Part shown: positions 1 to 43,500 of the stretch, in pieces
Layout: every line of letters begins with the position of its first letter
Numbering within the stretch: the stretch's first letter is position 1
Translations under genes and position numbers: made by a program
Notes under the pieces: model-generated
Seen by the model: the letters and a program-made list of their open reading frames with translations, nothing else
The model's database searches: none
Told to the model about the DNA's origin: nothing
IMG/VR virus record: IMGVR_UViG_3300046331_000690
Span: 1 to 56,120 of that record
Length of the DNA stretch: 56,120 bases
Strand: one strand, 5' to 3'
DNA from: a virus
Lineage: Duplodnaviria; Caudoviricetes

Positions 1-117
1 CAAAGGAAGATAGGCCAATTTAGAGTGCAACATATAAAATTTATTCTACGGGCAAAAGAATGGTATATGGAGGCATTGATTGATAGTAAGATTGAGTTTG
101 TGGGAGGGGAGGATTAA
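1..117 (+). CDS. 3' part of a 70-aa hypothetical protein spanning the window join (56025..56120 + 1..117)
   Basis: Manual translation gives MARIQLV...SFEYN|QRKIGQF...VGGED*. The TAA at 115-117 overlaps the AAC core of repeat R0. Confidence 0.75.
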   Translation, partial: QRKIGQFRVQHIKFILRAKEWYMEALIDSKIEFVGGED

Positions 118-238
118 CGCACAGGGCTTAACGCAGGTGTGGTATTAGATAGGTGATTTACAGCCCTTGTACTTGGCTTGGATATATATGCTGCCGATAG
201 CCTGATTGTCAAGCCACACTTGCGGTAAACCCAATGTT
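116..238. repeat. attC-like hairpin repeat R0
   Basis: AAC..GGGCTTAACGCAGGTGTGG...CCACACTTGCGGTAAACCC..GTT, 123 bp. Confidence 0.85.
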
Positions 239-266
239 GGCTGCTGTACGGTAAAAAAATAAAGAA

Positions 267-518
267 ATGACAAAAGAAAGTATCATAGAATTACAAAAGA
301 TTGATTGCAACTGTAATGATTGTAAACACCTTGTCCGTGATTTTGAAAAATATAAATTATTTGATGGTTTATATACAAATGAGAAGGGTCAGGTTACAAG
401 TCCATCACATCGTGTCAATTATGGTAATTGTCAAAAATTAAATAAGGCGGTATCGTTTATTCCGAATACCTGTCAATTAGAAACGCAAGGCTGCTTTGAA
501 CATCGGAGAGTAGTATAG
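267..518 (+). CDS. Cassette 1: Cys-rich hypothetical protein
   Basis: 83-aa ORF with a CNCNDC motif. Its stop lies in the cassette right end. Confidence 0.75.
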   Translation: MTKESIIELQKIDCNCNDCKHLVRDFEKYKLFDGLYTNEKGQVTSPSHRVNYGNCQKLNKAVSFIPNTCQLETQGCFEHRRVV

Positions 519-523
519 CGTAC

Positions 524-645
524 AACGCCTACGGCTTGGCGAAGTGGGGGAATTATACCCACAAAAGCCGATTAGAATTACTAATGTTTAATAACAGATA
601 AAAGATGATAGAAGCAGTCAGCCCCCATTTTGCCAAACCGATGTT
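524..645. repeat. attC-like hairpin repeat R1
   Basis: AAC..CGGCTTGGCGAAGTGGGGG...CCCCCATTTTGCCAAACCG.ATGTT, 122 bp. Confidence 0.85.
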
Positions 646-2008
646 ACCTGCTGGTGCGGTTGGTTTACGAGTACTTTCCTTATTCGATGGAATGAGCTGT
701 GGGCAACAAGCACTTGAAAGAATTGGTGTAAATGTTTTGGAATATTACGCAAGTGAAATTGATAAACACGCTATTGCAGTAACGATGCACAATTACCCAA
801 ATACAAAGCAATTAGGAAGCGTTATTGATGTGGATGGATATACACTACCAAAGATTGATTTATTGATTGGTGGAAGCCCTTGCCAAAGTTTTTCATTTGC
901 TGGCAAACGAAAAGGAATGAGTACAAAATGCGAAACAGAAATATTGACTTTAGAACACTATTTGGAATTGAAAAATGAAGGTTACGAATTTGAAGGGCAA
1001 AGCTATTTATTTTGGGAGTATATGAGATTGCTTAACGAAGTCAAACCAAAATACTTTTTACTTGAAAATGTACTGATGGGCGAAAAATGGGAAAAGATAT
1101 TGAGTAAAGCAATTGGAGTAAAACCAATTGAAATAAACTCTGCTTTAGTATCTGCTCAAAATCGAAGAAGATTATACTGGACAAATATTGGAATGCAACC
1201 AATGGGATTATTTGGAGATTTAGAAAACATAATACCGCAACCAAAAGACAAAGGTATTTTGTTAAAAGATATACTTGAAAGTGAAGTTGATGACAAATAT
1301 TATTTGAGCCAACAACGAATTGAAACAATGCTGAAAAGTGAAAGAAGTGTGCCTTATGTTGATGAAGAAACAAAGAAATTCAATTGCTTATTGGCTGTAT
1401 ATAATAAAATACCTACTGATGGGCAATATGTGGTACACAACACAATGCCACGAAGTAGCACAACTGGCAAAGGCGGTAGCGGACCACTAAGCCGAAATGA
1501 TGGTAAAACCTATTGCTTAGATACTGGAAGCACAAATGCAATTGAATTAGTTGGATGTATAAAGTTTGGCAGAACAGATGAGGCAAAGGAAATGAGAAAA
1601 GAAAGTATGAAAAATGGCAAAGATTATACACCATTTCAAGCCAAAGAAATAACTGGTATTGATTACGATAAAATGAATACGCTTACTACTGCAATAAATA
1701 AAGATAACCTGGTAATGCAATTAAATCCATCAACTGAAAGTAATGGATGCCAACCTTACCAACAAAATAGAATTTATGATACAGATGGAATTAGCCCCGC
1801 CTTAATGGCTCAAATGAGTTGTGGCACTCACGCCATAAAACACGAAAGAAAAATAAGAAGATTAACACCTTTAGAGTGTGAAAGACTGCAAACCGTTAAA
1901 TATGGATATACAAGTGTAGCTTCTGATAGTCAGCGATACAGAATGTTAGGTAATGGATGGACTGTTGATGTTATTGCTCACATATTATCTTACGGAGAAT
2001 GGTCGTAG
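641..2008 (+). CDS. Cassette 2: C5-cytosine DNA methyltransferase
   Basis: Motifs LSLFDG (I), GGSPCQ (IV), LENV (VI), QNRRR (VIII), RRLTPLECERLQ (IX) and LGNGW (X). The likely start is ATG 641 inside the repeat; the ORF track gives 605. Confidence 0.92.
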   Translation: MLPAGAVGLRVLSLFDGMSCGQQALERIGVNVLEYYASEIDKHAIAVTMHNYPNTKQLGSVIDVDGYTLPKIDLLIGGSPCQSFSFAGKRKGMSTKCETEILTLEHYLELKNEGYEFEGQSYLFWEYMRLLNEVKPKYFLLENVLMGEKWEKILSKAIGVKPIEINSALVSAQNRRRLYWTNIGMQPMGLFGDLENIIPQPKDKGILLKDILESEVDDKYYLSQQRIETMLKSERSVPYVDEETKKFNCLLAVYNKIPTDGQYVVHNTMPRSSTTGKGGSGPLSRNDGKTYCLDTGSTNAIELVGCIKFGRTDEAKEMRKESMKNGKDYTPFQAKEITGIDYDKMNTLTTAINKDNLVMQLNPSTESNGCQPYQQNRIYDTDGISPALMAQMSCGTHAIKHERKIRRLTPLECERLQTVKYGYTSVASDSQRYRMLGNGWTVDVIAHILSYGEWS

Positions 2009-2019
2009 CACTTGCAGGT

Positions 2020-2141
2020 AACGGTGGGCATATTACGCAGGTTTGGAGGCTTTGCAATCAGATCCAAACCAGCACTAAAGCCCGGCTCTGCAAGCTGACC
2101 AGGATATGACTTCCAGCCAAACTTGCGTAAATGCCGTTGTT
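2020..2141. repeat. attC-like hairpin repeat R2
   Basis: AAC..GGCAT[A]TTACGCAGGTTTGG...CCAAACTTGCGTAAATGCC..GTT, 122 bp, with one bulged A. Confidence 0.85.
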
Positions 2142-2195
2142 GTGTGCTGTTTTTCTTAGGGTTTTACAACTATCTTTAAAATAATTGTAAATAAA

Positions 2196-2231
2196 TTAGG
2201 AAAATACAATTTGACGGCATATATTTGTATT
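2196..2231 (+). promoter_or_regulatory. Putative Bacteroidota promoter inside cassette 3
   Basis: TTAG(2196-99)-N20-TATATTTG(2220-27), overlapped by the inverted repeat AATACAA/TTGTATT. Confidence 0.55.
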
Positions 2232-2246
2232 ACAAAAGCAAAAAAC

Positions 2247-2501
2247 ATGACAAAGACAATTTCACAATTACGCAAAGAAGCAAACAAAGCACCTAAGTAC
2301 GTTTTAAAAATGGACGGACTTGATTTATTTGTTGCCGACAAACAGGCTTTAACTGGCTGCAATATCACTGAAGATGTAAAGAAGGCTAAAATGTTTTCAG
2401 TTGGTTTTGATAATGAAGAAATGAAAGCTGGAGTATGGACGGCAGTTGCACAGTTAATGACTAATAACAAAGATGTAAAGTTTGAAGTAATGTATTTATG
2501 A
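2247..2501 (+). CDS. Cassette 3, gene 1: hypothetical protein
   Basis: ORF with ATG 2247 after an A-rich leader. Confidence 0.7.
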   Translation: MTKTISQLRKEANKAPKYVLKMDGLDLFVADKQALTGCNITEDVKKAKMFSVGFDNEEMKAGVWTAVAQLMTNNKDVKFEVMYL

Positions 2502-3169
2502 GAATAATAGTAGGATGCGAAGAAAGCGGCGAAGTACGTGATGCCTTTATAAAATTAGGGCATGATGCAATTAGCTGCGATTTAAAGCCATCAAGGAACG
2601 GCGGGCCACATTATCAGGGCAGCATCTTTGATATAGACTACTCTGATTTTGATTTGGCTATAATTCATCCACCATGCACTTACTTATGCGTTACTGCAAA
2701 TAAATGGCTTAAAGACCAACCTGCCAGAAAAAGCGGGGCATTAGTTGGAGCAGAAAGGCGGCAAGCCGTAAAAGAGGCACATGATTTTTTTATAGCCTGC
2801 TGGAAATTACCAGTTAAAAGAATGTGTATTGAAAACCCTGTAGGCGTAATGAGTTCATTATGGCGAAAGCCGGATCAAATCATACAACCGTGGCAATTTG
2901 GGCATAATGAACCAAAAAAAACCTGCCTTTGGCTGCGTGGCTTGCCACTATTAAAACACACTAAAATAATGGAACCGGAATATCATATAACAAAATCCGG
3001 GAAACGATTGCCTAAGTGGTATGCTTATGCTGATAAAAGCAAAGGGCAGGCACACAGGGCAGAAATTAGAAGCAAAACATTCACAGGCATTGCGGAAGCA
3101 ATGGCAAACCAATGGACAAATGAAAAGAAGATTATTTCACCTGTACTTGAAATCAACTTTGGAGCATAA
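2498..3169 (+). CDS. Cassette 3, gene 2: short phage C5-cytosine methyltransferase-like protein
   Basis: GCEESG (motif I-like), HPPCT (IV), IENP (VI), and C-terminal RSKTFTGIAEAMA. Confidence 0.75.
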   Translation: MRIIVGCEESGEVRDAFIKLGHDAISCDLKPSRNGGPHYQGSIFDIDYSDFDLAIIHPPCTYLCVTANKWLKDQPARKSGALVGAERRQAVKEAHDFFIACWKLPVKRMCIENPVGVMSSLWRKPDQIIQPWQFGHNEPKKTCLWLRGLPLLKHTKIMEPEYHITKSGKRLPKWYAYADKSKGQAHRAEIRSKTFTGIAEAMANQWTNEKKIISPVLEINFGA

Positions 3170-3341
3170 ATATTATGGCTCTTTAAAAGCGATTTTTATT
3201 GACACTACAAACCCGGATTTAGGAGTAAGCAAATTTACCCTGGACAGGTTTGATTTTGTCCAGCCCTACGAAAATGAAGTTTGTGTAATTCGTAAAGGCT
3301 TTATGCAGTCCACCGGCGATATTAGGACTGCTACCAAATAG
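3120..3341 (+). CDS. Cassette 3, gene 3: small hypothetical protein, possibly DNA-binding
   Basis: In-frame ATG 3120 within ORF 3021..3341. The stop lies in the cassette right end. Confidence 0.6.
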   Translation: MKRRLFHLYLKSTLEHKYYGSLKAIFIDTTNPDLGVSKFTLDRFDFVQPYENEVCVIRKGFMQSTGDIRTATK

Positions 3342-3346
3342 CACAC

Positions 3347-3469
3347 AACGGATTGGGGCTTGTAGCAGTAGTGGATCTATAGCACTACTGTTCAATACAC
3401 CACTAAAGCTGATTAGAAGTACACAGCTCAAAACTTGCACTTCTGCCCCTATTGCTACAAACCCTTGTT
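3347..3469. repeat. attC-like hairpin repeat R3
   Basis: AAC..GGGCTTGTAGCAGTAG...CTATTGCTACAAACCC.TTGTT, 123 bp. Confidence 0.85.
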
Positions 3470-3520
3470 AGCGGTAGTACGGTAAAATAAATAAGGGTGT
3501 AAAAATTAAAAACAGAAAAA

Positions 3521-3853
3521 ATGAAAAAAGCATTTATCAAATGGATGTCCAACCAAAACTGGATTTACAACTTAGCAGTAAAATTAATTGCTAACAGAAT
3601 TGTACACGGTCAAAATCAACTTACGCCTAAATATCTAATGGATAGAGGATGGGTTGAAGAAGAAGGATTTTTTGTTGAGTCAAACATTAAAGACCGTGAT
3701 AAGATTTGGATAAAGTTTGAAAACCACTATTTCAGAATTTGGCACGGCAAAGAAAGAACCTTTATCGGTTTAGAAAGCAAAGTTGAATGGTTTGAAAACT
3801 ACTATCTACTTGCTCACGGTGATAATGGTCGCTACCAACTTGCAGGTGTGTAG
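3521..3853 (+). CDS. Cassette 4: hypothetical protein
   Basis: 110-aa ORF that fills the cassette. Confidence 0.75.
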   Translation: MKKAFIKWMSNQNWIYNLAVKLIANRIVHGQNQLTPKYLMDRGWVEEEGFFVESNIKDRDKIWIKFENHYFRIWHGKERTFIGLESKVEWFENYYLLAHGDNGRYQLAGV

Positions 3854-3863
3854 TATTACCGCT

Positions 3864-3991
3864 AACGAACAGGGCTTGGCTGCACGTACCGGAATTTGAA
3901 ATACTGAATTTCAGCCCTTGTACAAAAGCCCGGTTATGTACCGAAGTTGATAGTCAAATTGTCAAGCCGGTATTGCGCCAAACCCCATGTA
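3864..3991. repeat. attC-like hairpin repeat R4 (right core GTA)
   Basis: AAC..GGGCTTGGC..TACCGG...CCGGTA..GCCAAACCC..GTA, 128 bp. Shares CAGCCCTTGTAC and TTGTCAAGCC with R0. Confidence 0.8.
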
Positions 3992-4051
3992 CTACGTAGT
4001 ATTTTCTTGTGCTGCGGAGCATTTTTAAGTAACAATTTAAAAACTATAACA

Positions 4052-4447
4052 ATGATAACAAGAGATTTATTCAGACTTCCTTTCGGAAACCACAAGTTAA
4101 CAGATGGGATTTATACTTTCTTGCTTCAAAAAGAAAATTCCGATTATCTCCGAAAGACTACTTACAGCATAAGGCAATACGACTCTTTATCGGGAGGTTC
4201 GGTTACATTTTATGAAGATATTGACGATGTTTTTGATAACACAAGCCGATATAAGCAAAAGGTTTTAAAATATAGAGTATTCATTACGGGAATGTCTTTT
4301 GGTGGTAGGGATGATTTATGGAATGTACTTTACAACTTAAAATACGTTCCTAAGTCCTCTTATAAAGAGTGGTTAAAAAAAGTTGAAGGAATAATGTCCA
4401 TCCAAATTGAAAAACAAATGTGTGGCGTTGGCGAAAATATTACGTAG
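4052..4447 (+). CDS. Cassette 5: hypothetical protein
   Basis: Likely ATG at 4052; the upstream part of ORF 3947 is repeat sequence. Confidence 0.7.
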   Translation: MITRDLFRLPFGNHKLTDGIYTFLLQKENSDYLRKTTYSIRQYDSLSGGSVTFYEDIDDVFDNTSRYKQKVLKYRVFITGMSFGGRDDLWNVLYNLKYVPKSSYKEWLKKVEGIMSIQIEKQMCGVGENIT

Positions 4448-4571
4448 TACGGTTCGGGGCTTTAAGAAGTTGGGGTTTCAAAGCTCAAATGTTCGTTTAA
4501 GCACTACTGTTGATTAGAATTACAAAAGTTGGGGTTTATCACTTCTGCCCCAATTTCTTAAACCCCTTGTT
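4448..4571. repeat. attC-like hairpin repeat R5 (left core TAC)
   Basis: TAC..GGGGCTTTAAGAAGTTGGGG...CCCCAATTTCTTAAACCCC.TTGTT, 124 bp. Shares GCACTACTGTT, GATTAGAA and CACTTCTGCCCC with R3. Confidence 0.85.
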
Positions 4572-4626
4572 ATGCCATCGTTGCGGTTTTCAAGGCAGGA
4601 AGTTTAACTTAAAAACAATTTAAAAA

Positions 4627-5343
4627 ATGAAATTAATAGCACTTGGCGACACTCACGGCAGAACAGATTGGAAGCAAATAGTTTCTAATACTGAATTTGA
4701 TAAAGTAATATTTATTGGCGACTACTTTGATACTCACGAAGATATTACACCTGAACAGCAGAAGTCAAATTTTGAAGATCTGATTAAATACAAAATAGCC
4801 AATATGGATAAAGTTGTTTTACTTTTTGGCAACCACGACTATCATTATTTAAAAACTGTAAATGAAACTTATAGTGGTTTTCAAGAATGGCACAGGACAG
4901 ATATAGCAGAGATGTTACACAAAGCATTAGGTGCTGATTTAATGCAAATGTGCCTAATTGATGGTAATTACATTTTTAGCCACGCAGGTGTAACAAAAAC
5001 TTGGTTGAAAAATACTGGTTATACAGGCGAAGACCCATTAGAATTATTTATAAATGATTTGTTTAAATATCAGCCATTGGCTTTTAGGTTTACAAGTGGT
5101 GTTAATCATTCTCCTTATGGTGATGATATTTGCCAAACGCCAATATGGGTTCGCCCACAAAGTTTGTATGCAGATTGTTTGGATAATTTTATTCAAGTTG
5201 TTGGGCATACTACACAAAAGCAATTAAAGATTATAGACGACAAGATAGTATTGATTGATACAATCGGAATGTCTGGTCAATTTCTTTGTATCACTGATGG
5301 TGAAATGTCCGTTTTGGAACTATCACGTAGCAATGGGGCATAA
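4627..5343 (+). CDS. Cassette 6: calcineurin-like metallophosphoesterase
   Basis: GDTHG, GDYFD, GNHD, SHAG and GHT motifs. Confidence 0.9.
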   Translation: MKLIALGDTHGRTDWKQIVSNTEFDKVIFIGDYFDTHEDITPEQQKSNFEDLIKYKIANMDKVVLLFGNHDYHYLKTVNETYSGFQEWHRTDIAEMLHKALGADLMQMCLIDGNYIFSHAGVTKTWLKNTGYTGEDPLELFINDLFKYQPLAFRFTSGVNHSPYGDDICQTPIWVRPQSLYADCLDNFIQVVGHTTQKQLKIIDDKIVLIDTIGMSGQFLCITDGEMSVLELSRSNGA

Positions 5344-5472
5344 CGCTGGGCATATTGCGAAGTTGGGGTAATAGAATTACTGTCGCTTGGTAGCTTATTG
5401 CACAACTGCTCAACAAAGATTTAAACTCCGATTGCGGTTCCGTCAAGCCCCAATTTAGCAAATGCCTATGTT
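5342..5472. repeat. attC-like hairpin repeat R6
   Basis: AAC..GGCAT[A]TTGCGAAGTTGGGG...CCCCAATTTAGCAAATGCC..GTT, 131 bp, with the same bulged A as R2. Confidence 0.85.
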
Positions 5473-5512
5473 GGCTGCTGCTATTAGGGTTCTCAAAATA
5501 ATGTCCTAAATA

Positions 5513-5544
5513 TTTGGTGTAACCAATAAGTTACACTACATTTG
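5513..5544 (+). promoter_or_regulatory. Bacteroidota promoter with a palindromic operator in cassette 7
   Basis: TTTG(5513-16)-N20-TACATTTG(5537-44). The spacer is GTGTAAC-caataa-GTTACAC. Confidence 0.7.
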
Positions 5545-5558
5545 ATAAAACATTTATT

Positions 5559-5807
5559 ATGGCAACAGTAACAAAAAACGCAAAAGAACTGAGTTTTAAA
5601 CAAATAACTATTGGTGAATTGCAACACGCTGATTTTTTTTCTCTTAATGGTAAATCATTTTTCATCTTTTCAAGAGTGGAAGAAATCGGATTAGGATTAG
5701 TTTCTATTCATTACCTATCAACGGTGAAATGGCAATCGTATGACAGGGTAATCAGGAATGATAAAAAGGTGTTTGTTGCACCATTAGGGAGGCATTATGA
5801 AGGATAA
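5559..5807 (+). CDS. Cassette 7, gene 1: hypothetical protein
   Basis: 82-aa ORF downstream of the promoter. Confidence 0.7.
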   Translation: MATVTKNAKELSFKQITIGELQHADFFSLNGKSFFIFSRVEEIGLGLVSIHYLSTVKWQSYDRVIRNDKKVFVAPLGRHYEG

Positions 5808-5994
5808 AATATTTAACTACATAAATGCTGCTGCTTTCTTTTCTGAATACTTGCCACACATTAAAAGCTATAAACACAAATTACGTGGCAAAAATGGTAG
5901 AGGAAACATTGTTGACTTTACAGATAAAGAAAAAAAGGAAATAAACGCTGCCTTGAAAAAACTCTTTAAAGAATTAGGGGGTGTCGCAAAGTAG
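5797..5994 (+). CDS. Cassette 7, gene 2: small DNA-binding protein (DUF5053-like)
   Basis: KLRGKNGRGNIVDFTDKEKKEINAAL resembles the DUF5053 C-terminal pattern (recalled, not searched). Confidence 0.5.
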   Translation: MKDKIFNYINAAAFFSEYLPHIKSYKHKLRGKNGRGNIVDFTDKEKKEINAALKKLFKELGGVAK

Positions 5995-6040
5995 CAGCCA
6001 ACATCTTTTTTAATGCACTCTCTTTAAAAATCAACATTTT
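5990..6040. other. Putative attI-like primary recombination site
   Basis: The last cassette ends in AAC (6000-02) with no hairpin after it, 38 bp before the recombinase ATG. Confidence 0.55.
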
Positions 6041-6922
6041 ATGAATAGGAAAAATGAATTATTACAGCAATTTAAAAATGAATTGAGTTTGAGAAATTAT
6101 GCTATGAATAGTATAGATACTTACAGTGGGTATCTATCACAGTTTTTTGAAGCAATGAAAGGCAAACCAAAGCCATTGCAAATTGAGGAGATTAAACAAT
6201 TTTTGTTATCCATCACCAACATGAATACCAGGGCAATGTTTGTAAATAGCATCCGTAATTTTTATAGCTACATTTTAAAAACGCCTTTGAGTTTAGATGA
6301 TATTCCTTATCCACGTAAGACAAGTTATTTGCCACAAATACTAAGCATACAAGAGGTAGATCGAATGATGAAATGTGTTGTAAATATTAAGCATAAAGCC
6401 ATTTTGCAAACCATGTATAGTTGCGCTTTGCGTATAAGTGAAGTGCCAGAAATTGAATGCAATACTAATATATGTCACTTGGATAGCAGCAGAAAAACAT
6501 TGCTGGTGAAAGGTGCCAAGGGTTTTAAAGATCGGTATGTACCAATACCTATTCCTACCATTATATTGCTTCGCAATTACAGAATAGCAGATAATAAAGG
6601 AAAGTGGTTATTTATGGGGCAAAATCAACAAAAATATTCTGTGAGAAGTATTCAGCAGATTTTTCACCGTGCAAAAGAAGCTGCACATATTGCCAAAAAA
6701 GTAACGCCACATTCATTAAGGCATAGCCGCCTTACTCACCTATGCGAAGCTGGGATGGATATATACAAGCTAAAGGAATTTGCCGGGCACAACAATATTA
6801 AAACAACTGAAATTTATTTGCACCTCAGTAAATCATCACTGGTAAATAATACCGAGCTGGCAGACCTGATCATTGCACAGTCATTGCATAACAGTGAATT
6901 ATTAATAGAATTAGGAAATTAA
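6041..6922 (+). CDS. Tyrosine recombinase, integron-integrase-like/XerD-like
   Basis: N-terminal SAM-like segment (LRNYAMNSIDTY) and catalytic motifs LRISE, KGFKDR, HSLRHS, AGH, TTEIY. The IntI-specific insertion is absent. Confidence 0.93.
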   Translation: MNRKNELLQQFKNELSLRNYAMNSIDTYSGYLSQFFEAMKGKPKPLQIEEIKQFLLSITNMNTRAMFVNSIRNFYSYILKTPLSLDDIPYPRKTSYLPQILSIQEVDRMMKCVVNIKHKAILQTMYSCALRISEVPEIECNTNICHLDSSRKTLLVKGAKGFKDRYVPIPIPTIILLRNYRIADNKGKWLFMGQNQQKYSVRSIQQIFHRAKEAAHIAKKVTPHSLRHSRLTHLCEAGMDIYKLKEFAGHNNIKTTEIYLHLSKSSLVNNTELADLIIAQSLHNSELLIELGN

Positions 6923-6923
6923 A

Positions 6924-7364
6924 ATGAGAACACCCTTCACTTTAGCTGATCTTAAAAAAACGCCTTGTGCGGCAATTAATCAGCACCTCTTTGTTGCGCC
7001 GGTTAAGAAAAAAGAAAAGAGCCTTGGCAAGCAAAAAACATGGATTCAGTTTAGATTACTCCAGTTTGCAGAAAGCAACAAACTGGAGCTTAAAGAAGAA
7101 CATAGATTTCACGATGAGCGCAAGTGGCGTTTCGATTGGGCAATACCTGAGCTGCATATAGCATTTGAATACGAAGGTATCTTTTCAGCTAAAAGCCGCC
7201 ATACTACAGCCAAAGGTTTTACAGGTGATGCAGAAAAATATAACGCTGCTCAATCTGCAGGATGGATAGTTTACAGATACACTGCAATAAACTACTTAGA
7301 TTTGGTAACTGATCTAAATAATTTGCCCGGTATTATTCAAAAAGAAAAAGATTTATTCAAATAG
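6924..7364 (+). CDS. PD-(D/E)XK endonuclease (DUF559/Vsr-like)
   Basis: EHRFH..RKWRFDWA...AFEYEG...RH...D.EKYN.AQ..GW.VYR. Confidence 0.75.
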   Translation: MRTPFTLADLKKTPCAAINQHLFVAPVKKKEKSLGKQKTWIQFRLLQFAESNKLELKEEHRFHDERKWRFDWAIPELHIAFEYEGIFSAKSRHTTAKGFTGDAEKYNAAQSAGWIVYRYTAINYLDLVTDLNNLPGIIQKEKDLFK

Positions 7365-7378
7365 AGTAACTTTGACTT

Positions 7379-7933
7379 ATGGCCAAAAAACAATTGACCG
7401 ATTTAAAACAGGATCCGAGCAACTTTAATCAGCATTCTCAATTTGGTATGGGCCTACTGGAAAAGTCAATAAGGAAGTTTGGTTTTGTAGAAGCTGGCCT
7501 TATTAGTGAAGATGATGTTATCTGCTCAGGAAATGCCAGGCAGGAGACCGCAGTTAGTATTGGAATGGAAGATGTGCAGATAATTGATATAGATGGTAGT
7601 AAACCCGTTTATCTACGAAAAAAAGGACTAAAAAGCGGCTCACAGGAATTTAAAGAACTTGGATTGGCTTTAAATGCTGTAGGTAAAGCTAATGTGGTAT
7701 TGGATGCTGAATTGATTGAAGCCGAATTGGGGGATGCTGTTTGTGAGGAGTGGGGAATTGAAAAAGAATTAAACTATAGTAGTAAAAATAAAGAAATTGA
7801 TTTAGATGAAAATGAACGTTTTACTATTGAATTAAATTTTACTGCTGATAATTTTTTCAGCATTAAAGAGGCAATTGCTGCCAAAGGGATAACTGCTGAA
7901 TCTATTCTACTTAAAGCTTTGAATATTGACTAA
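7379..7933 (+). CDS. ParB-like N-terminal domain protein
   Basis: LKQDPSNFNQH..LEKSIRKFGF..ICSGNAR pattern; sits directly before a methyltransferase. Confidence 0.65.
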   Translation: MAKKQLTDLKQDPSNFNQHSQFGMGLLEKSIRKFGFVEAGLISEDDVICSGNARQETAVSIGMEDVQIIDIDGSKPVYLRKKGLKSGSQEFKELGLALNAVGKANVVLDAELIEAELGDAVCEEWGIEKELNYSSKNKEIDLDENERFTIELNFTADNFFSIKEAIAAKGITAESILLKALNID

Positions 7934-8984
7934 ACATAAATTTCCATATAACTGGAACTTAGCAGACGGCTATCCTGCTAAAGGAATTGAACCGAATAAT
8001 TTAAATGTATTCGGAACTTTTATTTGCGGTGGTGGCTCAACTATGGGTTATAAATTAGCAGGCTTCAATCATTTAGGCGGAGTTGAAATAGATAAAAAAG
8101 TTGCAGCAGTTTATAAACTTAATCATAATCCAAAGCACCTTTTTATTGAAGATTTAAGAGCATTTAACCAAAGAAATGATTTGCCAGATCAATTATTTGA
8201 ATTGGATATTTTAGATGGTTCTCCACCATGCAGCACTTTTTCTATGGCTGGAAATAGAGAAAAAGACTGGGGTAAAGAAAAAATGTTTAGAGAGGGGCAG
8301 GCTATGCAAACATTGGATGACCTTGTTTTTGTGTACACTGACACTATTTTAAAACTAAGGCCAAAGGTTGCAATACTTGAAAATGTTAAAGGATTGATTC
8401 AGGCAAATGCCAGAGCCTATCTGCATCAAATAAAAAACCACCTTCAACTGGCCGGATATTCAGTTCAGGTTTTTTGTCTAAATGCAGCATCTATGGGAGT
8501 ACCACAAAAAAGAGAAAGAGTATTTTTAATTGCAAGGCAAACCACCTTCAACTGGCCGGATATTCAGTTCAGGTTTTTTGAAAAACCAATATTATTTGGA
8601 GAATTATCAAAATTAAACCCAAATGGAAAATTCAAAGAAATTATTGACTCTTGCAAAGATTTATGGAAAAATGCAAAACAAGGCTGCGGTCTTAATACAG
8701 TGCATCCAAATGGAAGCTCGTTTTTTTCTAAACGAAAGGTATCAGATAAAGAAGTTTGTGGAACTTTAACAGCACATGCAGATGAGGATTTTATGCACTC
8801 AACTGAGTTTAGGTGCTTAAATGAAGATGAGTTTAAGTTTATCGGAAGTTATCCAAAAGATTATAATTTTATTAATATTAATCCTGCTTATCTAATAGGC
8901 ATGTCAGTTCCTCCCGTAATGACAGCACAAATAGCACATCAGATTTATTTGCAATGGTTTAAAACGGAGGTAGAAAATGCGTAA
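7926..8984 (+). CDS. C5-cytosine DNA methyltransferase
   Basis: FICGGG, GSPPCS, LENV, QKRER and GMSVPP motifs; TTG start. Confidence 0.9.
   Translation: MTKHKFPYNWNLADGYPAKGIEPNNLNVFGTFICGGGSTMGYKLAGFNHLGGVEIDKKVAAVYKLNHNPKHLFIEDLRAFNQRNDLPDQLFELDILDGSPPCSTFSMAGNREKDWGKEKMFREGQAMQTLDDLVFVYTDTILKLRPKVAILENVKGLIQANARAYLHQIKNHLQLAGYSVQVFCLNAASMGVPQKRERVFLIARQTTFNWPDIQFRFFEKPILFGELSKLNPNGKFKEIIDSCKDLWKNAKQGCGLNTVHPNGSSFFSKRKVSDKEVCGTLTAHADEDFMHSTEFRCLNEDEFKFIGSYPKDYNFININPAYLIGMSVPPVMTAQIAHQIYLQWFKTEVENA
8435..8580. repeat. Exact 42-bp direct repeat (8435-8476 and 8539-8580)
   Basis: AAACCACCTTCAACTGGCCGGATATTCAGTTCAGGTTTTTTG occurs twice. Confidence 0.9.
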
Positions 8985-9468
8985 ACCAGACAAACAAACC
9001 ATTATAGATTTTATCATTAGTTGCCTTGAAAAAGGAGAGCAACGTGGTAACATATTGGTAAAAACTGGTAAAAAGTGGGGAACTAGTAAATCTGCCTTTG
9101 ATAGATGGCTAAAAATAGCAAAGCAGCAGTTAACTGATAAGCAGCAGGCCATTAAAAAGGAACTGGAAGCTATTGATAAAGCAGCAGCTATTGAAGCTCG
9201 TAAAAAGGCTATAATGACCGCAGATGAAAGGAAAGAATATTTGACTAAAATCATAAATGGAGAAGTAAAATTTAAAAAGCCATTTTTTGTAAAAGGTAAA
9301 ATAATGGAATACCCTGCTGAACCGGATGTAGCTGATAGGATGAAAGCAATATCTGAATTGAACAAAATGGAGGGTGACTATGCAGAAACAGCTATTAGGT
9401 TAAAAGGAGATGCTCTTTCTCCTTTAGAAATCTTCATAAATGGCAAACCAGCAGGTGCCGGTAGTTAA
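8977..9468 (+). CDS. terS: Terminase small subunit
   Basis: N-terminal HTH, DRMKAISELNKMEG motif, and position directly upstream of TerL. Confidence 0.75.
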   Translation: MRKPDKQTIIDFIISCLEKGEQRGNILVKTGKKWGTSKSAFDRWLKIAKQQLTDKQQAIKKELEAIDKAAAIEARKKAIMTADERKEYLTKIINGEVKFKKPFFVKGKIMEYPAEPDVADRMKAISELNKMEGDYAETAIRLKGDALSPLEIFINGKPAGAGS

Positions 9469-10792
9469 TATAAATATTGACTATGACAGTGTATTTCTAC
9501 CTGTTTACAAGCCGCTCAGAAATACTGATGCCCGGTTAAAATTTGTATATGGTGGCCGGGATAGCGGTAAGAGCCGGGATAGAGCCCAACAAAAAATAAT
9601 TGATTGCCTTTCTAAAAAGTATTTCCGATGCATCCTGATTAAAAAAACTGCAAATTCAATCAAGGATAGCCAGTGGCAGTTGATAAAAGATATTTGTGAG
9701 GAATGGAATATTGATCACCTGTTCCAGTTTAATACCAGCCCATTAGAGATTAAGTGTAAAGTAAATGGAAACAAATTCATTTGCCGGGGTATGGATGATC
9801 CTGCAAAGATTAAATCTATCAATGAGCCTTCAGATGCCTGGATAGAGGAAGGCAATCAACTTACTTTAGAAGACTGGATTTATATTATAACCACTCTCCG
9901 GAGCAATAGAGGACCAGTGAGTATTGATATGACCTTCAATACTGAAACTAAGGGAGATTATGAAGACTTCTGGCTGTATAAGGAGTATTTTAGCCATACT
10001 ACAGAAAAGAGTTTTACCCATACCAAAACGATCAGCTTTGGCAATGAAAAGGTAGATCTTAAATACATTGCCGTACATAGTACCTACCATGATAATCCAC
10101 ATGTTAGCATTGAAAGAAAGGCCTATCATGAAGGTTTGCAAACCTTAAATTTTTACTGGTACCGGGTATTTACTCAAGGCCTTTGGGGAAATGAAGAAAA
10201 CAATAGTCCATGGTTATTTGCATTTGACCGGGCAAAACATGTAAGTGCTGTAGAGCTATTTGCCAAGCGATCAGAGATACTGTATATAAGTTTTGACTTT
10301 AACCGGAATCCGCATGCGTGCACCATCATTCAATGGTATGATGAAACAGTATTTATTATTGAAGTGCTTAAAATACCGAATGTAGGTACTGAGGGTATCT
10401 GTGATATTGCAAAAGAGAAATATCCTGGCTTTTTATATGTTGTGACTGGTGACTATTCCGGTGATACTGTTTCTTCCCTGTTTAAAGAGCAGGTTACCAA
10501 TTATACCATCATTAAAAAATCGCTCTCTCTTAATGATGGACAGGTAAAGATTTCACCAAACCCAAGACTGGAGAAAAACCAAACGCTTGTAAATACCATT
10601 TTTAGTAAGTATAAAATATTGATGTGCCCGGTAAAGGCAAAGCCAGCCATTTATGATGCAGAAAAAGTAAATACGAGGGCAGATGGAACAATTGTAAAAG
10701 ATGATAGAAATGATCCTACACAACAGGCCGATGTACTGGATACTCTTCGTTATTGGTTCAACCAGTTTATGGGATGGTTTATAAAAAAATAA
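9440..10792 (+). CDS. terL: Terminase large subunit (PBSX-like)
   Basis: Walker A YGGRDSGKS, Walker B WIEE, TFN coupling motif, nuclease SFDFN and D..D.LRY. Confidence 0.93.
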   Translation: MANQQVPVVNINIDYDSVFLPVYKPLRNTDARLKFVYGGRDSGKSRDRAQQKIIDCLSKKYFRCILIKKTANSIKDSQWQLIKDICEEWNIDHLFQFNTSPLEIKCKVNGNKFICRGMDDPAKIKSINEPSDAWIEEGNQLTLEDWIYIITTLRSNRGPVSIDMTFNTETKGDYEDFWLYKEYFSHTTEKSFTHTKTISFGNEKVDLKYIAVHSTYHDNPHVSIERKAYHEGLQTLNFYWYRVFTQGLWGNEENNSPWLFAFDRAKHVSAVELFAKRSEILYISFDFNRNPHACTIIQWYDETVFIIEVLKIPNVGTEGICDIAKEKYPGFLYVVTGDYSGDTVSSLFKEQVTNYTIIKKSLSLNDGQVKISPNPRLEKNQTLVNTIFSKYKILMCPVKAKPAIYDAEKVNTRADGTIVKDDRNDPTQQADVLDTLRYWFNQFMGWFIKK

Positions 10793-10817: not shown

Positions 10818-10863
10818 GTAAAATCAAATATCCTATGAAAAACAGGCCTCAAAAGTATAAAAA

Positions 10864-10905
10864 ATAATCTTATTGATTAAAAATTTATCAATAAGATTAT
10901 ATTTG
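10864..10905 (+). promoter_or_regulatory. Late promoter/operator A
   Basis: Perfect palindrome ATAATCTTATTGAT-N9-ATCAATAAGATTAT overlapping a TATATTTG -7 box. Confidence 0.7.
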
Positions 10906-10921
10906 TTGCAAATTATTATAC

Positions 10922-28712: not shown

Positions 28713-28754
28713 AAAAGTACAATTTGTTTAACTCATATCAAATGTACAACTTAA

Positions 28755-28796
28755 ATTATCTCAATGATTAAAAATTTATCAATCTGATTAAATTTG
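28755..28796 (+). promoter_or_regulatory. Late promoter/operator B
   Basis: Degenerate copy of 10864-10905 with the identical core TGATTAAAAATTTATCAAT and a TAAATTTG -7 box. Confidence 0.7.
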
Positions 28797-28807
28797 TAAG
28801 GCAAAAC

Positions 28808-28880
28808 AGCAGTGTAGAGCAGCTGGTAGCTCGAAAGTCTCATAATCTTTAGGTCGCTGGTTCGAGTCCAGCCACTGCAA
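28808..28880 (+). tRNA. tRNA-Met (CAT), initiator-like
   Basis: Cloverleaf: GCAGTG/CACTGC acceptor with unpaired 1:72, GAGC/GCTC D-stem, CTCATAA loop, GCTGG-TTCGAGT-CCAGC T arm. Confidence 0.85.
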
Positions 28881-28895
28881 CAAAAAATTTAAACT

Positions 28896-29243
28896 ATGTC
28901 AAAAGTTCTAGTTATTCGCAAAACAGATAAGACCATTCACAAAGTTTCGCTTCAAAATAAAGCCACTTTACTAGCTTTCAACAACAGGTTACCAGCCGGT
29001 CAAAAATGGACATTTGAGGAAATGGAAGCAGAAGAAGCAGAAAAGCTACCTTTTATTGACGATGCCTATGTAACAGCAGGTGAGGCACAAAATAAAGTTG
29101 GTGTACTTACTCAGGAAGTAGAAGTGAAGGATGCAAGGATTGCTGAACTGGAAGCAAAGTTGGCAGCATTGAGCGCTTCGGCAGAGGCAGCAGCACCGGT
29201 TATTCCAGCAGCGCCGGTTAAGGAACCAGCAGCAAAAAAATAA
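28896..29243 (+). CDS. Hypothetical protein
   Basis: 115-aa ORF with a coiled coil and an Ala/Pro tail. Confidence 0.65.
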   Translation: MSKVLVIRKTDKTIHKVSLQNKATLLAFNNRLPAGQKWTFEEMEAEEAEKLPFIDDAYVTAGEAQNKVGVLTQEVEVKDARIAELEAKLAALSASAEAAAPVIPAAPVKEPAAKK

Positions 29244-29286
29244 TTTATTCAACCCGATTGTTTTAACCCAACAATAATACTTTTTT

Positions 29287-30168
29287 ATGGCAAAAATCAG
29301 CTCAGTTTTAGAAAGACAGTTTAAGAAATTAGGTATAGAAATTACAGACGAACTGAAAACAGTTCTTGAGATAGAAGGGGAAATGCCTGATGATGTTGCT
29401 TCTAAAATTGACAAAGGGTTACTTACCCTAGAGGCTGCCAAAACCAATCCTGAAATAACCAAGTCATTAAAGCAGAGTACCCTTGCCGGGGCTGATGCTA
29501 AGATGGATGAAATTATTAAGGAAATGGGCCTGACAGTAGGTGAAGATTTTGCAGGTGAAAAGAATACCTATGAAAAAATTAGCATGCTGAGTAAAATGTT
29601 GCATGAGCAGGGGAAGAAAAAAGGGGAAGGTAACAGCAAAGAAAGTGTAAGTGATCTTTTGAAAAAAGAGCGTGAAGCATTTGCAGCTAAAGAAGCTGAT
29701 ATGCAAAAGAAATTGAAAGACCTTACAGACGGACTTACCAGTAAGGAATCTGAATTTAAAAATATCAGGGAGAGTGATCTTACATCATTTGAACTGCAAA
29801 AAATATTACTTGGGAAAGACTATGTTTTTCCTAAGGAAATGGATAGTTCTTTAAAAGTACAAACTGCTTTGGGAGCTCTCAATAAGGACCTAGCCGAAAA
29901 GGGATTGGTTATCAAACGAAACGAAGCCGGATCATTGGTAATTACCGATAAAGAAGGCCAAAAAGCGTACACTGATAAGCATGAACCAATTGACAGTCCA
30001 CACTCATACATTGACGGCGTGCTTACGCAAAACAAATTACTGAACATTAATGACCCTAATGCTCAGAAACAACAACAGGGGTCACAAGGAGCACAAACTA
30101 TTCCAGGAACTGGCGCAAAAGGAAATGCAACAATTGTTGCAGAGATTGATGCACAGATTTTTAAATAG
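29287..30168 (+). CDS. Capsid scaffolding protein
   Basis: Charged, helical protein directly before the capsid gene. Confidence 0.65.
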   Translation: MAKISSVLERQFKKLGIEITDELKTVLEIEGEMPDDVASKIDKGLLTLEAAKTNPEITKSLKQSTLAGADAKMDEIIKEMGLTVGEDFAGEKNTYEKISMLSKMLHEQGKKKGEGNSKESVSDLLKKEREAFAAKEADMQKKLKDLTDGLTSKESEFKNIRESDLTSFELQKILLGKDYVFPKEMDSSLKVQTALGALNKDLAEKGLVIKRNEAGSLVITDKEGQKAYTDKHEPIDSPHSYIDGVLTQNKLLNINDPNAQKQQQGSQGAQTIPGTGAKGNATIVAEIDAQIFK

Positions 30169-30207
30169 GCTCAATACTATCTCTTTTATTTTTTCAACTT
30201 AATTACA

Positions 30208-31329
30208 ATGGGTAAAGGATTAGCCAATGCCCTCTTGATATCTTCCCGTGAAGTTTTCAGAGGAGCTACGCCTATAACTAAATTAACCACTCCGGGTTTT
30301 TTGCAGTACCTGCTGCAGAATAACAAGCCAAAGATTGTCAGCATGGCAAAAGATGATGGCACAGGATATTTACGTGATCTTAAAATCAGATTCCGTACCA
30401 GGGGTGTTCCCGGCAGATCAGTAACAACTGATGATTGTTCTGTACAAGTAAAGCCAGCCTATCAGGAACTGGTAGTTCCTGCCACCAGCTATCGTGCTTT
30501 TGGGCTTTGTTTTGAAGATGATGAAATTGCCAAATTTGAAAGCGATTCATTGGCACAATTGAGTGCCGGTAATCCTACCATGACAGGCATCATGAAGGAT
30601 GTATATGAAGCAATCATTGAGCAAGCCAATGGTTTTGTTGCTGATATCAACCTTGATTTATTGGCATTACAGGCCGCCAATTTTGGAAAGAATGCCACTA
30701 CCGGATTTAATACTGCCAAAGCAGTAAACTTCCCATTAAGCACTGCTACCAATCCTTTAGCATCTGGCATGACAGATGTAATGGCTGATGCAATGGCAAA
30801 TGAAATGCGTCTTTCTGGAGCATGCATAGTAGGTAGCGGTTTGATCAACAACTATTACCTGAACCAAAGTGCAATACCTGCAGGGCAAGGCAATCAGGCT
30901 GGTATTAATACATCTATGTTGGCATTACCAAACTTTTATTTTGATCCTTATGCCCAAACATCATGGGGAGCTAATCAGTTTGGTTTGTTTGAAAAAGATG
31001 CAATCCAGTTTGTAAATACCTGCCGTTTCAGAGGTGCCAAAGCTGGTCAGAAAGGAAGTGATTTCTTTATGACATTGAGGTTGCCTTTGATTGATAGTCT
31101 TGGCCAGGGTGATTTAGGTTATTTTGAATTTGATGTTCAATTGGCATACAGAACCTGCCCAAGTGAAATAGTAATCAACGGCGGTGCACCGGTACAAATT
31201 GGTCGTGGTTGGAATATCATTTTGAGCTGCTCATACCAGACAATAAATATTCCTTCTAACAGCTATGAGGCTACTGACAGGTTAAATCAGGTAAACGGAA
31301 CCTTCCTTTACTCAGCTACAAACGCATAG
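30208..31329 (+). CDS. Major capsid protein
   Basis: 373 aa; position after the scaffold gene and composition fit. Confidence 0.7.
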   Translation: MGKGLANALLISSREVFRGATPITKLTTPGFLQYLLQNNKPKIVSMAKDDGTGYLRDLKIRFRTRGVPGRSVTTDDCSVQVKPAYQELVVPATSYRAFGLCFEDDEIAKFESDSLAQLSAGNPTMTGIMKDVYEAIIEQANGFVADINLDLLALQAANFGKNATTGFNTAKAVNFPLSTATNPLASGMTDVMADAMANEMRLSGACIVGSGLINNYYLNQSAIPAGQGNQAGINTSMLALPNFYFDPYAQTSWGANQFGLFEKDAIQFVNTCRFRGAKAGQKGSDFFMTLRLPLIDSLGQGDLGYFEFDVQLAYRTCPSEIVINGGAPVQIGRGWNIILSCSYQTINIPSNSYEATDRLNQVNGTFLYSATNA

Positions 31330-31337
31330 TAAAATAA

Positions 31338-31895
31338 ATGAACTGTTTAGTAAATAGGATAGGCATAAAAGGTTGCGGAGCTCCATCCATAACTGCTTCA
31401 GCACCGGGGGTAACTCCAGTAGTTGAAGAATTGCCTATCCTTTTTATAAATCAGCTACCAGGGGTTACTTTAGAAAATATTGAAGCACTGGCAGATGATG
31501 AACAGGAAACATTTATTGGGGTATGGAATGATGTGGCACTTAGGACCATGAAGAAGTTTGAGATACTGGTAAAAGCAAAATTAAACCGGTGTTATAAGCT
31601 AACTGATAAAACAGTAGTGGAGTGCCTTGTTTGCGAAAAAAAGGAATTGTTTGATGTGGCGCTTTGGTACCTGCATGGAACAGAATTGATGATTGAAAGG
31701 ACTAGCACGGATGAAATGAGCCGGTTTACAACTATTGATTTAGAGAAGGCAGAGCAATTAAAGGAAGAGTTTTTTCGAGAGTTTTCTGCTGCTTTGGATG
31801 ATGCTGTAAATAGTATCAATCCTGCTGATAGTGACTGTGTAATAAGTTGTGTGGAATGTAACGACACCGTAAAATGGGTAATGCAAACACCATGA
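31338..31895 (+). CDS. Head-tail adaptor-like protein
   Basis: Position after the capsid gene. Confidence 0.45.
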   Translation: MNCLVNRIGIKGCGAPSITASAPGVTPVVEELPILFINQLPGVTLENIEALADDEQETFIGVWNDVALRTMKKFEILVKAKLNRCYKLTDKTVVECLVCEKKELFDVALWYLHGTELMIERTSTDEMSRFTTIDLEKAEQLKEEFFREFSAALDDAVNSINPADSDCVISCVECNDTVKWVMQTP

Positions 31896-38901: not shown

Positions 38902-38911
38902 AAACTATCGC

Positions 38912-39184
38912 ATGGAAGAAATTACTCAAGTTAAAAAAGATATACAGGAAGTAAAGGTTAACGTAGGCACAATCCTTTATCTATTAAAGGGAGATGAATC
39001 TTTCGGTGAACACGGTTTTGTGAAAACTACAAAAGAGGCATTAGTAAACCACGAAGACCGGTTAAATCTGTTAGAAGAAGAGCAAGTTAGAAATAAGCAA
39101 TTGAAGAAAATAATATTTTGGCTTATATCAATTGCCGTAACAGAAGGCATCGCAACACTATTTTTAATATTTACAAAAAAATAA
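38912..39184 (+). CDS. Membrane protein (holin/antiholin-like)
   Basis: Coiled coil plus a C-terminal TM segment, in the lysis cluster. Confidence 0.5.
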   Translation: MEEITQVKKDIQEVKVNVGTILYLLKGDESFGEHGFVKTTKEALVNHEDRLNLLEEEQVRNKQLKKIIFWLISIAVTEGIATLFLIFTKK

Positions 39185-40751: not shown

Positions 40752-40988
40752 ATGCGCTATATGTTCACTGCTATTATTGCAATTCCATCCTACCATATTG
40801 GTTTTTTAGACATTTTTGAGGTTGACAACAATACATATTTTGCAAACCCTAAAAACTCATGGGAAAGCCTACACTATCCTCCAGAGTATGTACAGTTTTA
40901 CTTTTCAAAAATTGGTTCAACATGGAAAACTGAACCACATGTACTTCAGAATATTTTAGAACAAGTTATTGAGCAAGGGGGGTTATGA
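40752..40988 (+). CDS. Hypothetical protein
   Basis: 78-aa ORF converging on the integrase. Confidence 0.5.
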   Translation: MRYMFTAIIAIPSYHIGFLDIFEVDNNTYFANPKNSWESLHYPPEYVQFYFSKIGSTWKTEPHVLQNILEQVIEQGGL

Positions 40989-42200: not shown

Positions 42201-42203
42201 AAA

Positions 42204-42452: not shown

Positions 42453-42457
42453 CGTAA

Positions 42458-42850: not shown

Positions 42851-42881
42851 TATTATAAATTATTTTTTGGTACACCATTTA

Positions 42882-43499: not shown

Positions 43500-43500
43500 T

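Follow-up and report, generated by a model that had tools for sequence, protein, structure and literature searches.

The stretch of DNA analyzed here, hereafter the window, is the whole of the IMG/VR virus record IMGVR_UViG_3300046331_000690 (56,120 bases; CheckV completeness 100%). It comes from a tailed phage of ~36% G+C in which the plus strand carries nearly all genes. The first 6 kb are occupied by an array of seven gene cassettes and seven imperfect hairpins of 120–130 nucleotides (nt), which is closed by an open reading frame (ORF) at 6041–6922 on the plus strand. This ORF encodes a tyrosine recombinase of 293 amino acids, placed in the IntI/Xer clade and lacking the I2 insertion of IntI, as judged from its translation, profile matches, structure alignment and a phylogenetic tree. 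It is considered here as the candidate recombinase of an integron-like cassette platform.

The hairpin elements, termed E0 to E6, start with the box (A/T)AC and end with the box GT(T/A). Each has an outer stem that terminates in AAC/GTT, then a short spacer without pairing, an inner stem whose irregularity is fixed, and a variable loop, and the elements fold as long imperfect hairpins at −13 to −26 kcal/mol (DNA parameters). A covariance model, R1, was built from an alignment of 13 elements, seven from the window and six from a related phage. A search of the 56-kb window with this model returned seven matches, all on the plus strand, with starts at 116, 524, 2020, 3348, 3864, 4449 and 5342; elsewhere in the window it found no element, only weak reverse-strand echoes of the same places. 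The elements are delimited, on the plus strand, as E0 (AAC ... GTT, 116–238; 87.3 bits and its fold), E1 (524–645; 100.7 bits and its sequence), E2 (2020–2141; fold and R1), E3 (3347–3469; 87.7 bits), E4 (3864–3991; 95.7 bits), E5 (4448–4571; 89.8 bits, with the box variant TAC/GTT) and E6 (5342–5472; 94.2 bits and its fold). In the folds of E2 and E6, an A directly after the GCAT/ATGC stem is unpaired, while the other elements carry a C opposite an A at this place. The first-pass annotation of the window had reported a bulged A at the same stem position of two repeats and had likened it to the extrahelical bases of attC; the unpaired A is present in E2 and E6, the place itself is a conserved irregularity that is not always a bulge, and the likeness to attC goes no further than analogy. 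Three other search procedures were set aside. A crude scan for inverted pairs of GTT and AAC words was uninformative, with 31 pairs in the array against 20–48 in control segments, and was replaced by an anchored test. An arm-alignment hairpin finder, which returned nothing at first and then three of the seven elements along with background, was dropped for the covariance model, and a gapless inverted-repeat search recovered only two elements.

Between the elements lies cargo encoded on the plus strand. A gene cut by the left end of the record enters the array as a frame-0 ORF that stops in the left box of E0. Cassette 1 (267–518) encodes 83 amino acids of no assigned family, and cassette 2 (605–2008) a C5 cytosine DNA methyltransferase (Pfam DNA_methylase, E 7.7e-40; phrog_116). 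Cassette 3 (2247–3341) holds an 84-residue ORF, a DNA methyltransferase of 223 residues (2498–3169; phrog_757) and a small ORF, and cassettes 4 (3521–3853) and 5 (4052–4447) encode proteins of 110 and 131 residues, respectively, neither with a family. Cassette 6 (4627–5343) specifies a calcineurin-like metallophosphoesterase (Pfam Metallophos, E 7.4e-12) whose stop codon falls in the left box of E6, and cassette 7 (5559–5994) contains two small ORFs of 82 and 65 residues, the latter with DUF5053. When 49 ORFs from the arrays and the flank of the window were compared with Pfam, supplemented by PHROGs, 11 array ORFs proved to be DNA methyltransferases of four Pfam families (C5, N6_N4, D12 and N6_Mtase), to which PHROGs adds the ORF at 2498–3169 of the window; the remaining array cargo comprises a PAPS-reductase-like protein, the metallophosphoesterase, a helix-turn-helix protein and many small ORFs without assigned function. 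The six elements of locus L008, whose recombinase is 75% identical to that of the window, are accompanied chiefly by N6/N4 methyltransferases. The cargo is rich in orphan DNA methyltransferases, and since they make up most of it, the array can be read as an exchangeable anti-restriction toolkit. One cassette of ~160 nt contains no ORF and has an internal hairpin of its own; it occurs in L008 (1308–1466) and, at 76% identity, in L017 (8749–8962), where it adjoins the recombinase gene, and it may be a non-coding RNA cassette.

Comparison of the elements revealed extensive covariation of their stems. In the 13-element alignment, 90.5% of stem cells are paired, against 64% in shuffled alignments, and both sides have changed in 12 of 17 pairs. 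In 48 elements from 19 sources (alignment A4, fitted to the covariance model), 94.2% of cells are paired, against 61.5% after shuffling, with compensatory change in 16 of the 17 pairs. In either set, none of 500 shuffles did as well as the real alignment, and pairing collapsed once partners were slid, by 1–3 columns in the 13-element set. This pattern argues for intramolecular pairing, as distinct from two duplex binding sites. The wobbles, moreover, are one-sided: there are 82 G·T cells to 7 A·C cells (62 to 5 without the seed sequences), and one stem position is G·T in 47 of the 48 elements. Because G·T wobbles would be C·A mismatches on the opposite strand, it is the plus (coding) strand that appears to be selected to fold.

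The folding strand is also the transcribed strand, and wobbles of the G·U type are typical of RNA. Some elements include the start codon of the next gene, as in the element at 524–645, whose loop and 3' arm contain the start codon and the N-terminus of the following methyltransferase. These features suit an alternative in which the hairpins act mainly at the RNA or regulatory level (processing, stability or translation), homologous recombination shuffles the cassettes as proposed for the PeSL stem-loops of T4-type phages, and the recombinase is a mere neighbor. Such an alternative would also draw on the grouping of the hairpin bodies into few sequence families, on the RecT-like protein and exonuclease encoded by the phage, and on PeSL-mediated shuffling as described in passages of two published studies (PMC2839356, PMC4122927). 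Terminator-like sites, however, are not enriched in the scan (4 found against 5.0 expected), the promoter scan likewise gave no enrichment, and an Rfam scan of positions 1–7000 yielded no match at E up to 1; the elements are neither terminators nor a known RNA.

Further evidence comes from the cassette ends. The stretch directly following the GTT of one element is the reverse complement of the stretch directly before the AAC of the next, so that every cassette has inverted ends of its own. Within the window, the seven adjacent end pairs score 61 of 77 positions beyond the triplet, and of the 5040 possible orders only the true one reaches 61. Across 15 arrays, 34 of 46 adjacent pairs match at 8 or more of 11 positions, compared with 45 of 2070 non-adjacent pairs; the observed sum was not reached in any of 20,000 shuffles. 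All 34 good pairs mismatch at position 11, where T stands opposite G on the plus strand in 32 of them. A triplet exchange that circularized a cassette would, judging from these ends, bring the two together and close a 14-bp outer stem on the hairpin body. Ends that complete a site upon circularization are a hallmark of integron cassettes. The stem covariation and the cassette-end test together exclude a chance origin of the repeats, and homologous recombination predicts neither reverse-complement cassette ends nor a fixed wobble at position 11.

Cassette content differs between related phages, and pairs of related loci revealed where cassettes are joined. Positions 3992–4165 of L008 are 100% identical to positions 1–174 of L011, and the identity ends at the C of an AAC. 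Beyond that triplet, L008 continues into the conserved sequence that precedes the recombinase, and L011 into a hairpin and three further cassettes. A second junction ends a cassette behind which L008 has a hairpin and L002 the sequence proximal to the recombinase, and here too the break follows AAC. The visible junctions (L008/L011, L008/L002 and a hint at the contig level) all lie on the AAC side. An alignment of 17 loci over the 70–75 nt before the recombinase start codon showed that all 17 share a conserved sequence to the right of AAC, with a TTA-CGAAC-like motif and a AAAATCAA-like motif ahead of the ATG, whereas the sequence to the left is cassette-specific. In the window, the left-box half of the last cassette ends in the AAC at 6000–6002, and 38 conserved nucleotides then lead to the recombinase ATG. 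By position and junction, the conserved stretch appears to be the counterpart of attI, where insertion would occur, and it may contain the promoter of the gene as well; we delimit the attI-like terminal site as 5989–6040 on the plus strand from the alignment of the 17 loci, the junction positions and the junction comparisons. Neither the exact stop of similarity after AAC nor the terminal junction that lacks a hairpin and is fused, in all 17 loci, to the gene of the recombinase is predicted if the hairpins serve RNA-level functions and cassettes are shuffled by homologous recombination, an explanation that we therefore regard as improbable. Insertion of cassettes in a nested fashion into a single hairpin was also considered and rejected: it predicts complementarity between the first left box and the last right box, which match at only 2–6 of 11 positions in 12 arrays whose ends were possibly incompletely detected.

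The elements leave their mark on assemblies. Logan contigs of four sequencing runs break at elements, and a few Logan joints link a cassette end to another hairpin, as in X5, where position 3867 is joined to 530 with 3 letters between them at a depth of 7.9. These joints are hints only, their sides being short and possibly derived from related phages, and the uncovered parts are uninformative. Viral contigs L002, L006 and L009 begin 116–160 nt upstream of the recombinase gene. Since these repeats fragment assemblies, assembled data probably contain fewer arrays than actually exist. The window and L007 both begin 115 nt before the first element, but their left ends are not alike.

The protein encoded by 6041–6922 was then compared with known recombinases. 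Pfam recognizes Phage_integrase (E 4.6e-31) and an N-terminal SAM_4 domain (E 4.9e-09). Across 27 aligned members of the family, the catalytic residues R131, K160/K163, H224, R227, H250 and Y259 never vary, and they align with those of XerA, XerD and IntI, bearing out the first-pass annotation, which had called the SAM-like domain and the catalytic residues intact. The highest-scoring NCBIfam profile is that of archaeal XerA (NF040815, XerA_Arch) with 180.4 bits, under its cut-off of 220, followed by XerC with 143.5 bits (cut-off 335) and XerD with 133.2 bits (cut-off 329.6). The integron-integrase profile TIGR02249 scores 131.1 bits in two pieces against a cut-off of 265, and NF011946 scores 83 bits against 435. 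By these cut-offs the protein lies outside the curated XerA family, outside XerC and XerD, from which its clade placement also separates it, and outside IntI, from which the I2 domain separates it as well.

The absence of the I2 insertion is apparent in every comparison. The profile TIGR02249 is matched only at model positions 1–174 and 240–302, its 65 positions from 175 to 239 facing 23 residues of the phage protein. In alignment with VchIntIA (PDB 2A3V), residues 11–167 correspond to IntI 9–167 and residues 204–262 to IntI 247–305, leaving 36 residues against 79 in IntI. Archaeal XerA structures (4A8E, 5HXY), in contrast, align with the recombinase end to end. Only the short stretch KDRYVPIPIPTIILLRNYRIADNKGKWLF is present between KDRYVP and WLF, and an AlphaFold2 model (pLDDT 86.9) places merely a short beta-hairpin where IntI has its insertion. 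The best structural matches of this model are archaeal XerA and VchIntIA, XerA being the best solved relative. The IntI-specific I2 insertion is absent, with ~40 residues missing; the earlier reading of this segment as too short to hold the extra region of IntI was correct, in the predicted structure as in the alignments.

At least 289 relatives were found at E 1e-10 or better, nearly all of 280–297 amino acids and all metagenomic or derived from metagenome-assembled genomes. Among the 82 GenBank phage records that matched, none exceeds 32.5% identity. Where related contigs have a named host, it belongs to the Chitinophagaceae (Ferruginibacter, Sediminibacterium) or to other Bacteroidota. A tree was then built from 75 proteins. 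It combines 27 proteins of the family and 12 remoter relatives, from Bacteroidota or phages, with 14 IntI that score over the curated cut-off, the XerD and XerC-like proteins of the same genomes, five Xer proteins of Bacteroidota and a single archaeal Xer-like protein. The search was quick, the root was set at the midpoint and sampling was limited, with other groups of simple tyrosine recombinases outside it. XerC and XerD are set apart by a branch of support 100. The 14 IntI form a clade of their own (support 99), and the phage family a separate one (99; 84 with its relatives); IntI, the phage family and the Bacteroidota relatives share one set with an SH-aLRT of 95, with the archaeal row just outside it. 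The recombinase family is thus a near relative of IntI and not a member of the IntI clade. The proposal of the first-pass annotation that the enzyme might be a sister or convergent cassette recombinase draws support from this grouping with IntI apart from XerC/XerD, as well as from the complementary cassette ends and the exact AAC junctions. Farther away, the Polaribacter phages Freya_1 to Freya_10 (ten near-identical records of 43,978–48,920 bases) encode a 25.7%-identical integrase, found at offsets 50 to 4147 of the records, with many small ORFs upstream (L052); the stretch upstream could be variable in some other way, or the records may simply start at a different place.

The remainder of the window bears on the role of the recombinase. 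The phage encodes a large terminase (9440–10792), a portal, a tape-measure protein, a RecT-like protein, an exonuclease and a helicase. On the minus strand, a tyrosine integrase of 405 amino acids (40983–42200) lies next to a CI-like repressor (43501–44253), the two forming a lysogeny module at 40983–44253, and the phage is a complete temperate phage. Since the phage has this separate integrase and repressor, ORF 6041–6922 is a second tyrosine recombinase, neither the sole integrase of the phage nor its lysogeny integrase. One could still suppose an ordinary phage integrase or Xer-type resolvase that happens to stand beside chance or unrelated repeats, as automatic annotations naming relatives 'XerD' and the best NCBIfam match, XerA_Arch below its cut-off, might suggest. 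The presence of the lysogeny integrase, the statistics of covariation, cassette ends and junctions, which exclude chance, and an association with arrays conserved to ~50% protein identity make this supposition scarcely credible.

The association was examined with R1 across homologous loci. Where ~590 nt or more of sequence precedes the gene, all 15 homologues of at least 49% identity carry at least one element there, on the strand of the gene, and so the possibility, raised with the first prediction, that homologues generally lack adjacent arrays is not what was found. Three further loci begin within 160 nt of the gene, too close for elements to be seen, and have the AAC junction. The distant relatives (26–42% identity) vary: arrays are present in L019 and L020, the elements of L026 and L027 lie downstream and on the opposite strand, and L030, L032 and L036 show single or weak matches, while R1 finds no elements in L022, L023, L028, L029, L031, L033–L035 or L037–L049. 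The elements of L020 (34% recombinase identity) measure ~85 nt, have a constant left flank in four of the five shown and lack cassette-end complementarity; this array may be a different subtype.

Taken together, these results make it rather likely, in our view, that ORF 6041–6922 encodes the recombinase of an integron-like cassette platform without an I2 domain, borne by temperate phages of Bacteroidota with Chitinophagaceae-type hosts. What was observed is the anatomy of the array, the covariation of its stems, the complementarity of cassette ends, the exactness of the junctions, and a recombinase that occurs together with these elements and is akin to IntI. That this enzyme does the cutting, that its substrate is single-stranded DNA and which of the boxes it cuts are inferred. 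The parts of the platform would be the recombinase gene, the attI-like site ending 38 nt upstream of its ATG, and the co-oriented cassette array upstream. In the mechanism we envisage, the coding strand would fold, and recombinase subunits would bind the outer 14-bp stem and the inner one, which would stand in for the arms of a core site on either side of the unpaired spacer of 3–5 nt. Cleavage and exchange would take place at or beside the AAC of the 5' arm. Exchange between two hairpin sites would excise a cassette circle, whose complementary ends would complete a perfect outer stem, and exchange of the circle with the attI-like site would insert it beside the recombinase gene. Lacking I2, the enzyme cannot read extrahelical bases as IntI does.

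Several observations weigh against an integron-like platform driven by this enzyme. The G·T bias fits folded RNA as well as folded DNA, and the 48-element pairing statistic comes from an alignment that had been fitted to the covariance model. The body of E2 also occurs in L008, where the sequence on either side of it differs from that in the window, so that a single-box crossover does not explain everything. In the canonical integron, the integrase gene is divergent from the array, the cassettes are followed by attC, and the bottom strand is cleaved between AA and C, whereas the phage recombinase lies downstream of the array and is co-oriented with it, and the phage hairpins lie 5' of the gene they precede, sometimes overlapping it. 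The chemistry, moreover, cannot equal that of IntI, since I2 is absent and, according to the relevant passages of Escudero 2016 (PMC4792948), the interaction of I2 with attC blocks the second cleavage.

Further observations of this kind concern the distribution of the elements. A pattern scan of a viral collection with the element consensus matched at least 122 stretches. R1, run on 75 of the 80 loci fetched (five were omitted as duplicates of a contig), found 246 elements in the 75. A family recombinase lies within ~9 kb in only 9 of the 80 loci found through their elements, which represent 6 contigs, and only 5 of 37 whole element-bearing virus records encode one (2 of 19 among those at least 90% complete). 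Arrays without the recombinase nevertheless keep complementary ends, with 22 of 48 adjacent end pairs matching at 10 or more of 11 positions against 31 of 1500 random pairs, and with 43 of 65 pairs at 8 or more of 11 in 12 such arrays. Most hairpin-bearing phages thus lack this enzyme and the linkage in cis is not obligatory; cassettes persist, and perhaps move, in its absence, and the cassette pool is much wider than the recombinase, comparable to integrase-less attC clusters.

This distribution speaks for a real cassette system moved by another enzyme, either a host Xer-type protein acting on folded DNA or a recombinase in trans, with the phage ORF left to a narrower job such as acting on its own adjacent site or resolving multimers. 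XerCD acts on folded DNA for CTX-type phages, and several Xer-like genes are present in Bacteroidota genomes. The Polaribacter phage P12002L (L051), a virulent phage with no annotated recombinase, offers a parallel. On its minus strand, at 29150–31340 and 38000–38960, hairpins of 60–70 nt with AAC/GTT boxes flank methyltransferase genes, and the ends of two cassettes are complementary over 8–9 nt, the shared box logic and this complementarity both being judged by eye; model R1 matches neither P12002L nor the Polaribacter phage Leef_1. Passages of Qi et al. 2023 (Front Microbiol, PMC9892861) report that IntI1 recombined one predicted P12002L attC with attI1 in E. coli, a site not matched to the elements folded here. 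Against another enzyme stands the placement of the phage recombinase, which, when present, is always at the same end of the array and on the same strand, abutting the junction (17 of 17 loci), and lies downstream on the strand of the elements in all 6 element-found contigs that hold both. Nor are enzyme-less arrays an argument against the recombinase, since integrase-less attC clusters are common for true integrons too. We consider movement of the cassettes by another enzyme unlikely.

Among the loci found through their elements, a profile of the attI-like site gave strong matches only in a contig already known. A weak match (E 0.002) in L134, at 5964–6040 on the minus strand, lies just downstream of a recombinase-less array and may be the remnant of a lost recombinase gene. 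A viral contig of 169,658 bases (L112/L113/L138/L143) has 20 or more elements, which are spread across over 40 kb, with a family recombinase gene at 115706–116488 right after one cluster. The element counts suggest a large unrecognized exchange network. More broadly still, the phages may harbor a second, I2-less and phage-native lineage of integron-type platforms, widespread in freshwater Bacteroidota phages, in which a recombinase of the Xer/IntI clade docks circular cassettes, each with an attC-like hairpin formed by the folded coding strand, at a gene-fused site, and a far larger pool of enzyme-less phages exchanges the same cassettes in trans. This wider picture is quite possible, and we advance it tentatively.

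Other features of the window lie apart from this argument. A C5 methyltransferase and a ParB-like nuclease are encoded immediately downstream of ORF 6041–6922. Within the C5 methyltransferase gene at 7926–8984, a perfect 42-nt direct repeat (8435–8476 and 8539–8580, 104 nt apart) could reflect duplication within the gene or an artefact of assembly. An AT-rich palindromic motif of 45 nt occurs in two copies that are 87% alike, one after the terminase gene (10862–10906) and the other (28753–28797) directly before a tRNA-Met at 28808–28881; it may be a terminator or an operator.

If the system is active, integron-type cassette capture would not be limited to the IntI of bacteria and archaea, and would occur in phages too, and without I2. 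It would provide a living example of hairpin cassettes used by an I2-less recombinase and a comparator for the evolution of single-strand hairpin recombination from Xer-like enzymes, and would explain how these phages come by diverse collections of orphan DNA methyltransferases that counter restriction by the host. It would also bear on the 'chicken-and-egg' origin of attC sites and the I2 domain, as that problem is put in passages of Escudero 2016 (PMC4792948). A recombinase with a short folded site could interest tool builders. Because detection by integron finders depends on the IntI-specific domain and on canonical attC models, the present system is invisible to them.

In the full-text literature searched, with supplements and subscription journals outside the search, no description of this recombinase, its attI-like site or its arrays was found, and several known systems resemble it in part. 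The subgroup of simple tyrosine recombinases termed 'integron-like' by Smyshlyaev et al. 2021 (PMC8138268) records insertion-less relatives of IntI as sequences; the passages concerned assign them no sites, arrays or function. The stem-loops of T4-type phages likewise lie between small accessory genes in hyperplastic regions and are associated with modular shuffling. In the corresponding passages (PMC2839356, PMC4122927), however, they are promoter-terminator motifs thought to use homologous recombination, with no recombinase, complementary cassette ends or attI-like junction.

Even when I2 is absent, a Xer-like enzyme is able to act on a hairpin if this mimics a core site with two arms, as in CTX-type phages and IMEX. 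These systems differ from the present one, as do the pdif modules, in relying on host XerC/XerD and dif-like sequences, and they have neither an element-encoded recombinase with a docking site nor arrays of long covarying hairpins. Xer enzymes acting on folded hairpins that mimic a duplex site are mentioned in Escudero 2016 (PMC4792948), and the pdif modules of Acinetobacter plasmids are described as discrete gene modules bounded by Xer-type sites (PMC7399989), in the parts of those papers that concern them. Also comparable are the attC clusters without integrase ('CALINs') reported in phages, including the Flavobacteriia phage P12002L with its methyltransferases, by Qi et al. 2023 (PMC9892861). 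There, as here, attC-like sites flank orphan methyltransferase genes; the difference is that the authors read them as integron parts lacking an integrase, and the relevant passages describe no cognate phage recombinase or attI-like site.

Integrons themselves are another close comparison. Both systems have a tyrosine recombinase of the same clade and an array of co-oriented cassettes. Both have imperfect-hairpin sites with AAC/GTT boxes and an unpaired spacer, in which structure is kept over sequence, and in both the cassette ends complete a site upon circularization. Next to the gene of the phage recombinase, cassette-specific sequence gives way to conserved sequence at what appears to be a dedicated site like that of integrons, and arrays without the enzyme exist in each system. 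Beyond the differences in layout discussed above, the phage system differs in its recombinase, which lacks I2 and scores 131 against 265 bits, far under the IntI cut-off. It also differs in its elements of ~120–130 nt, whose outer stems of 14 nt carry a fixed T·G at position 11, and in being phage-borne, in Bacteroidota.

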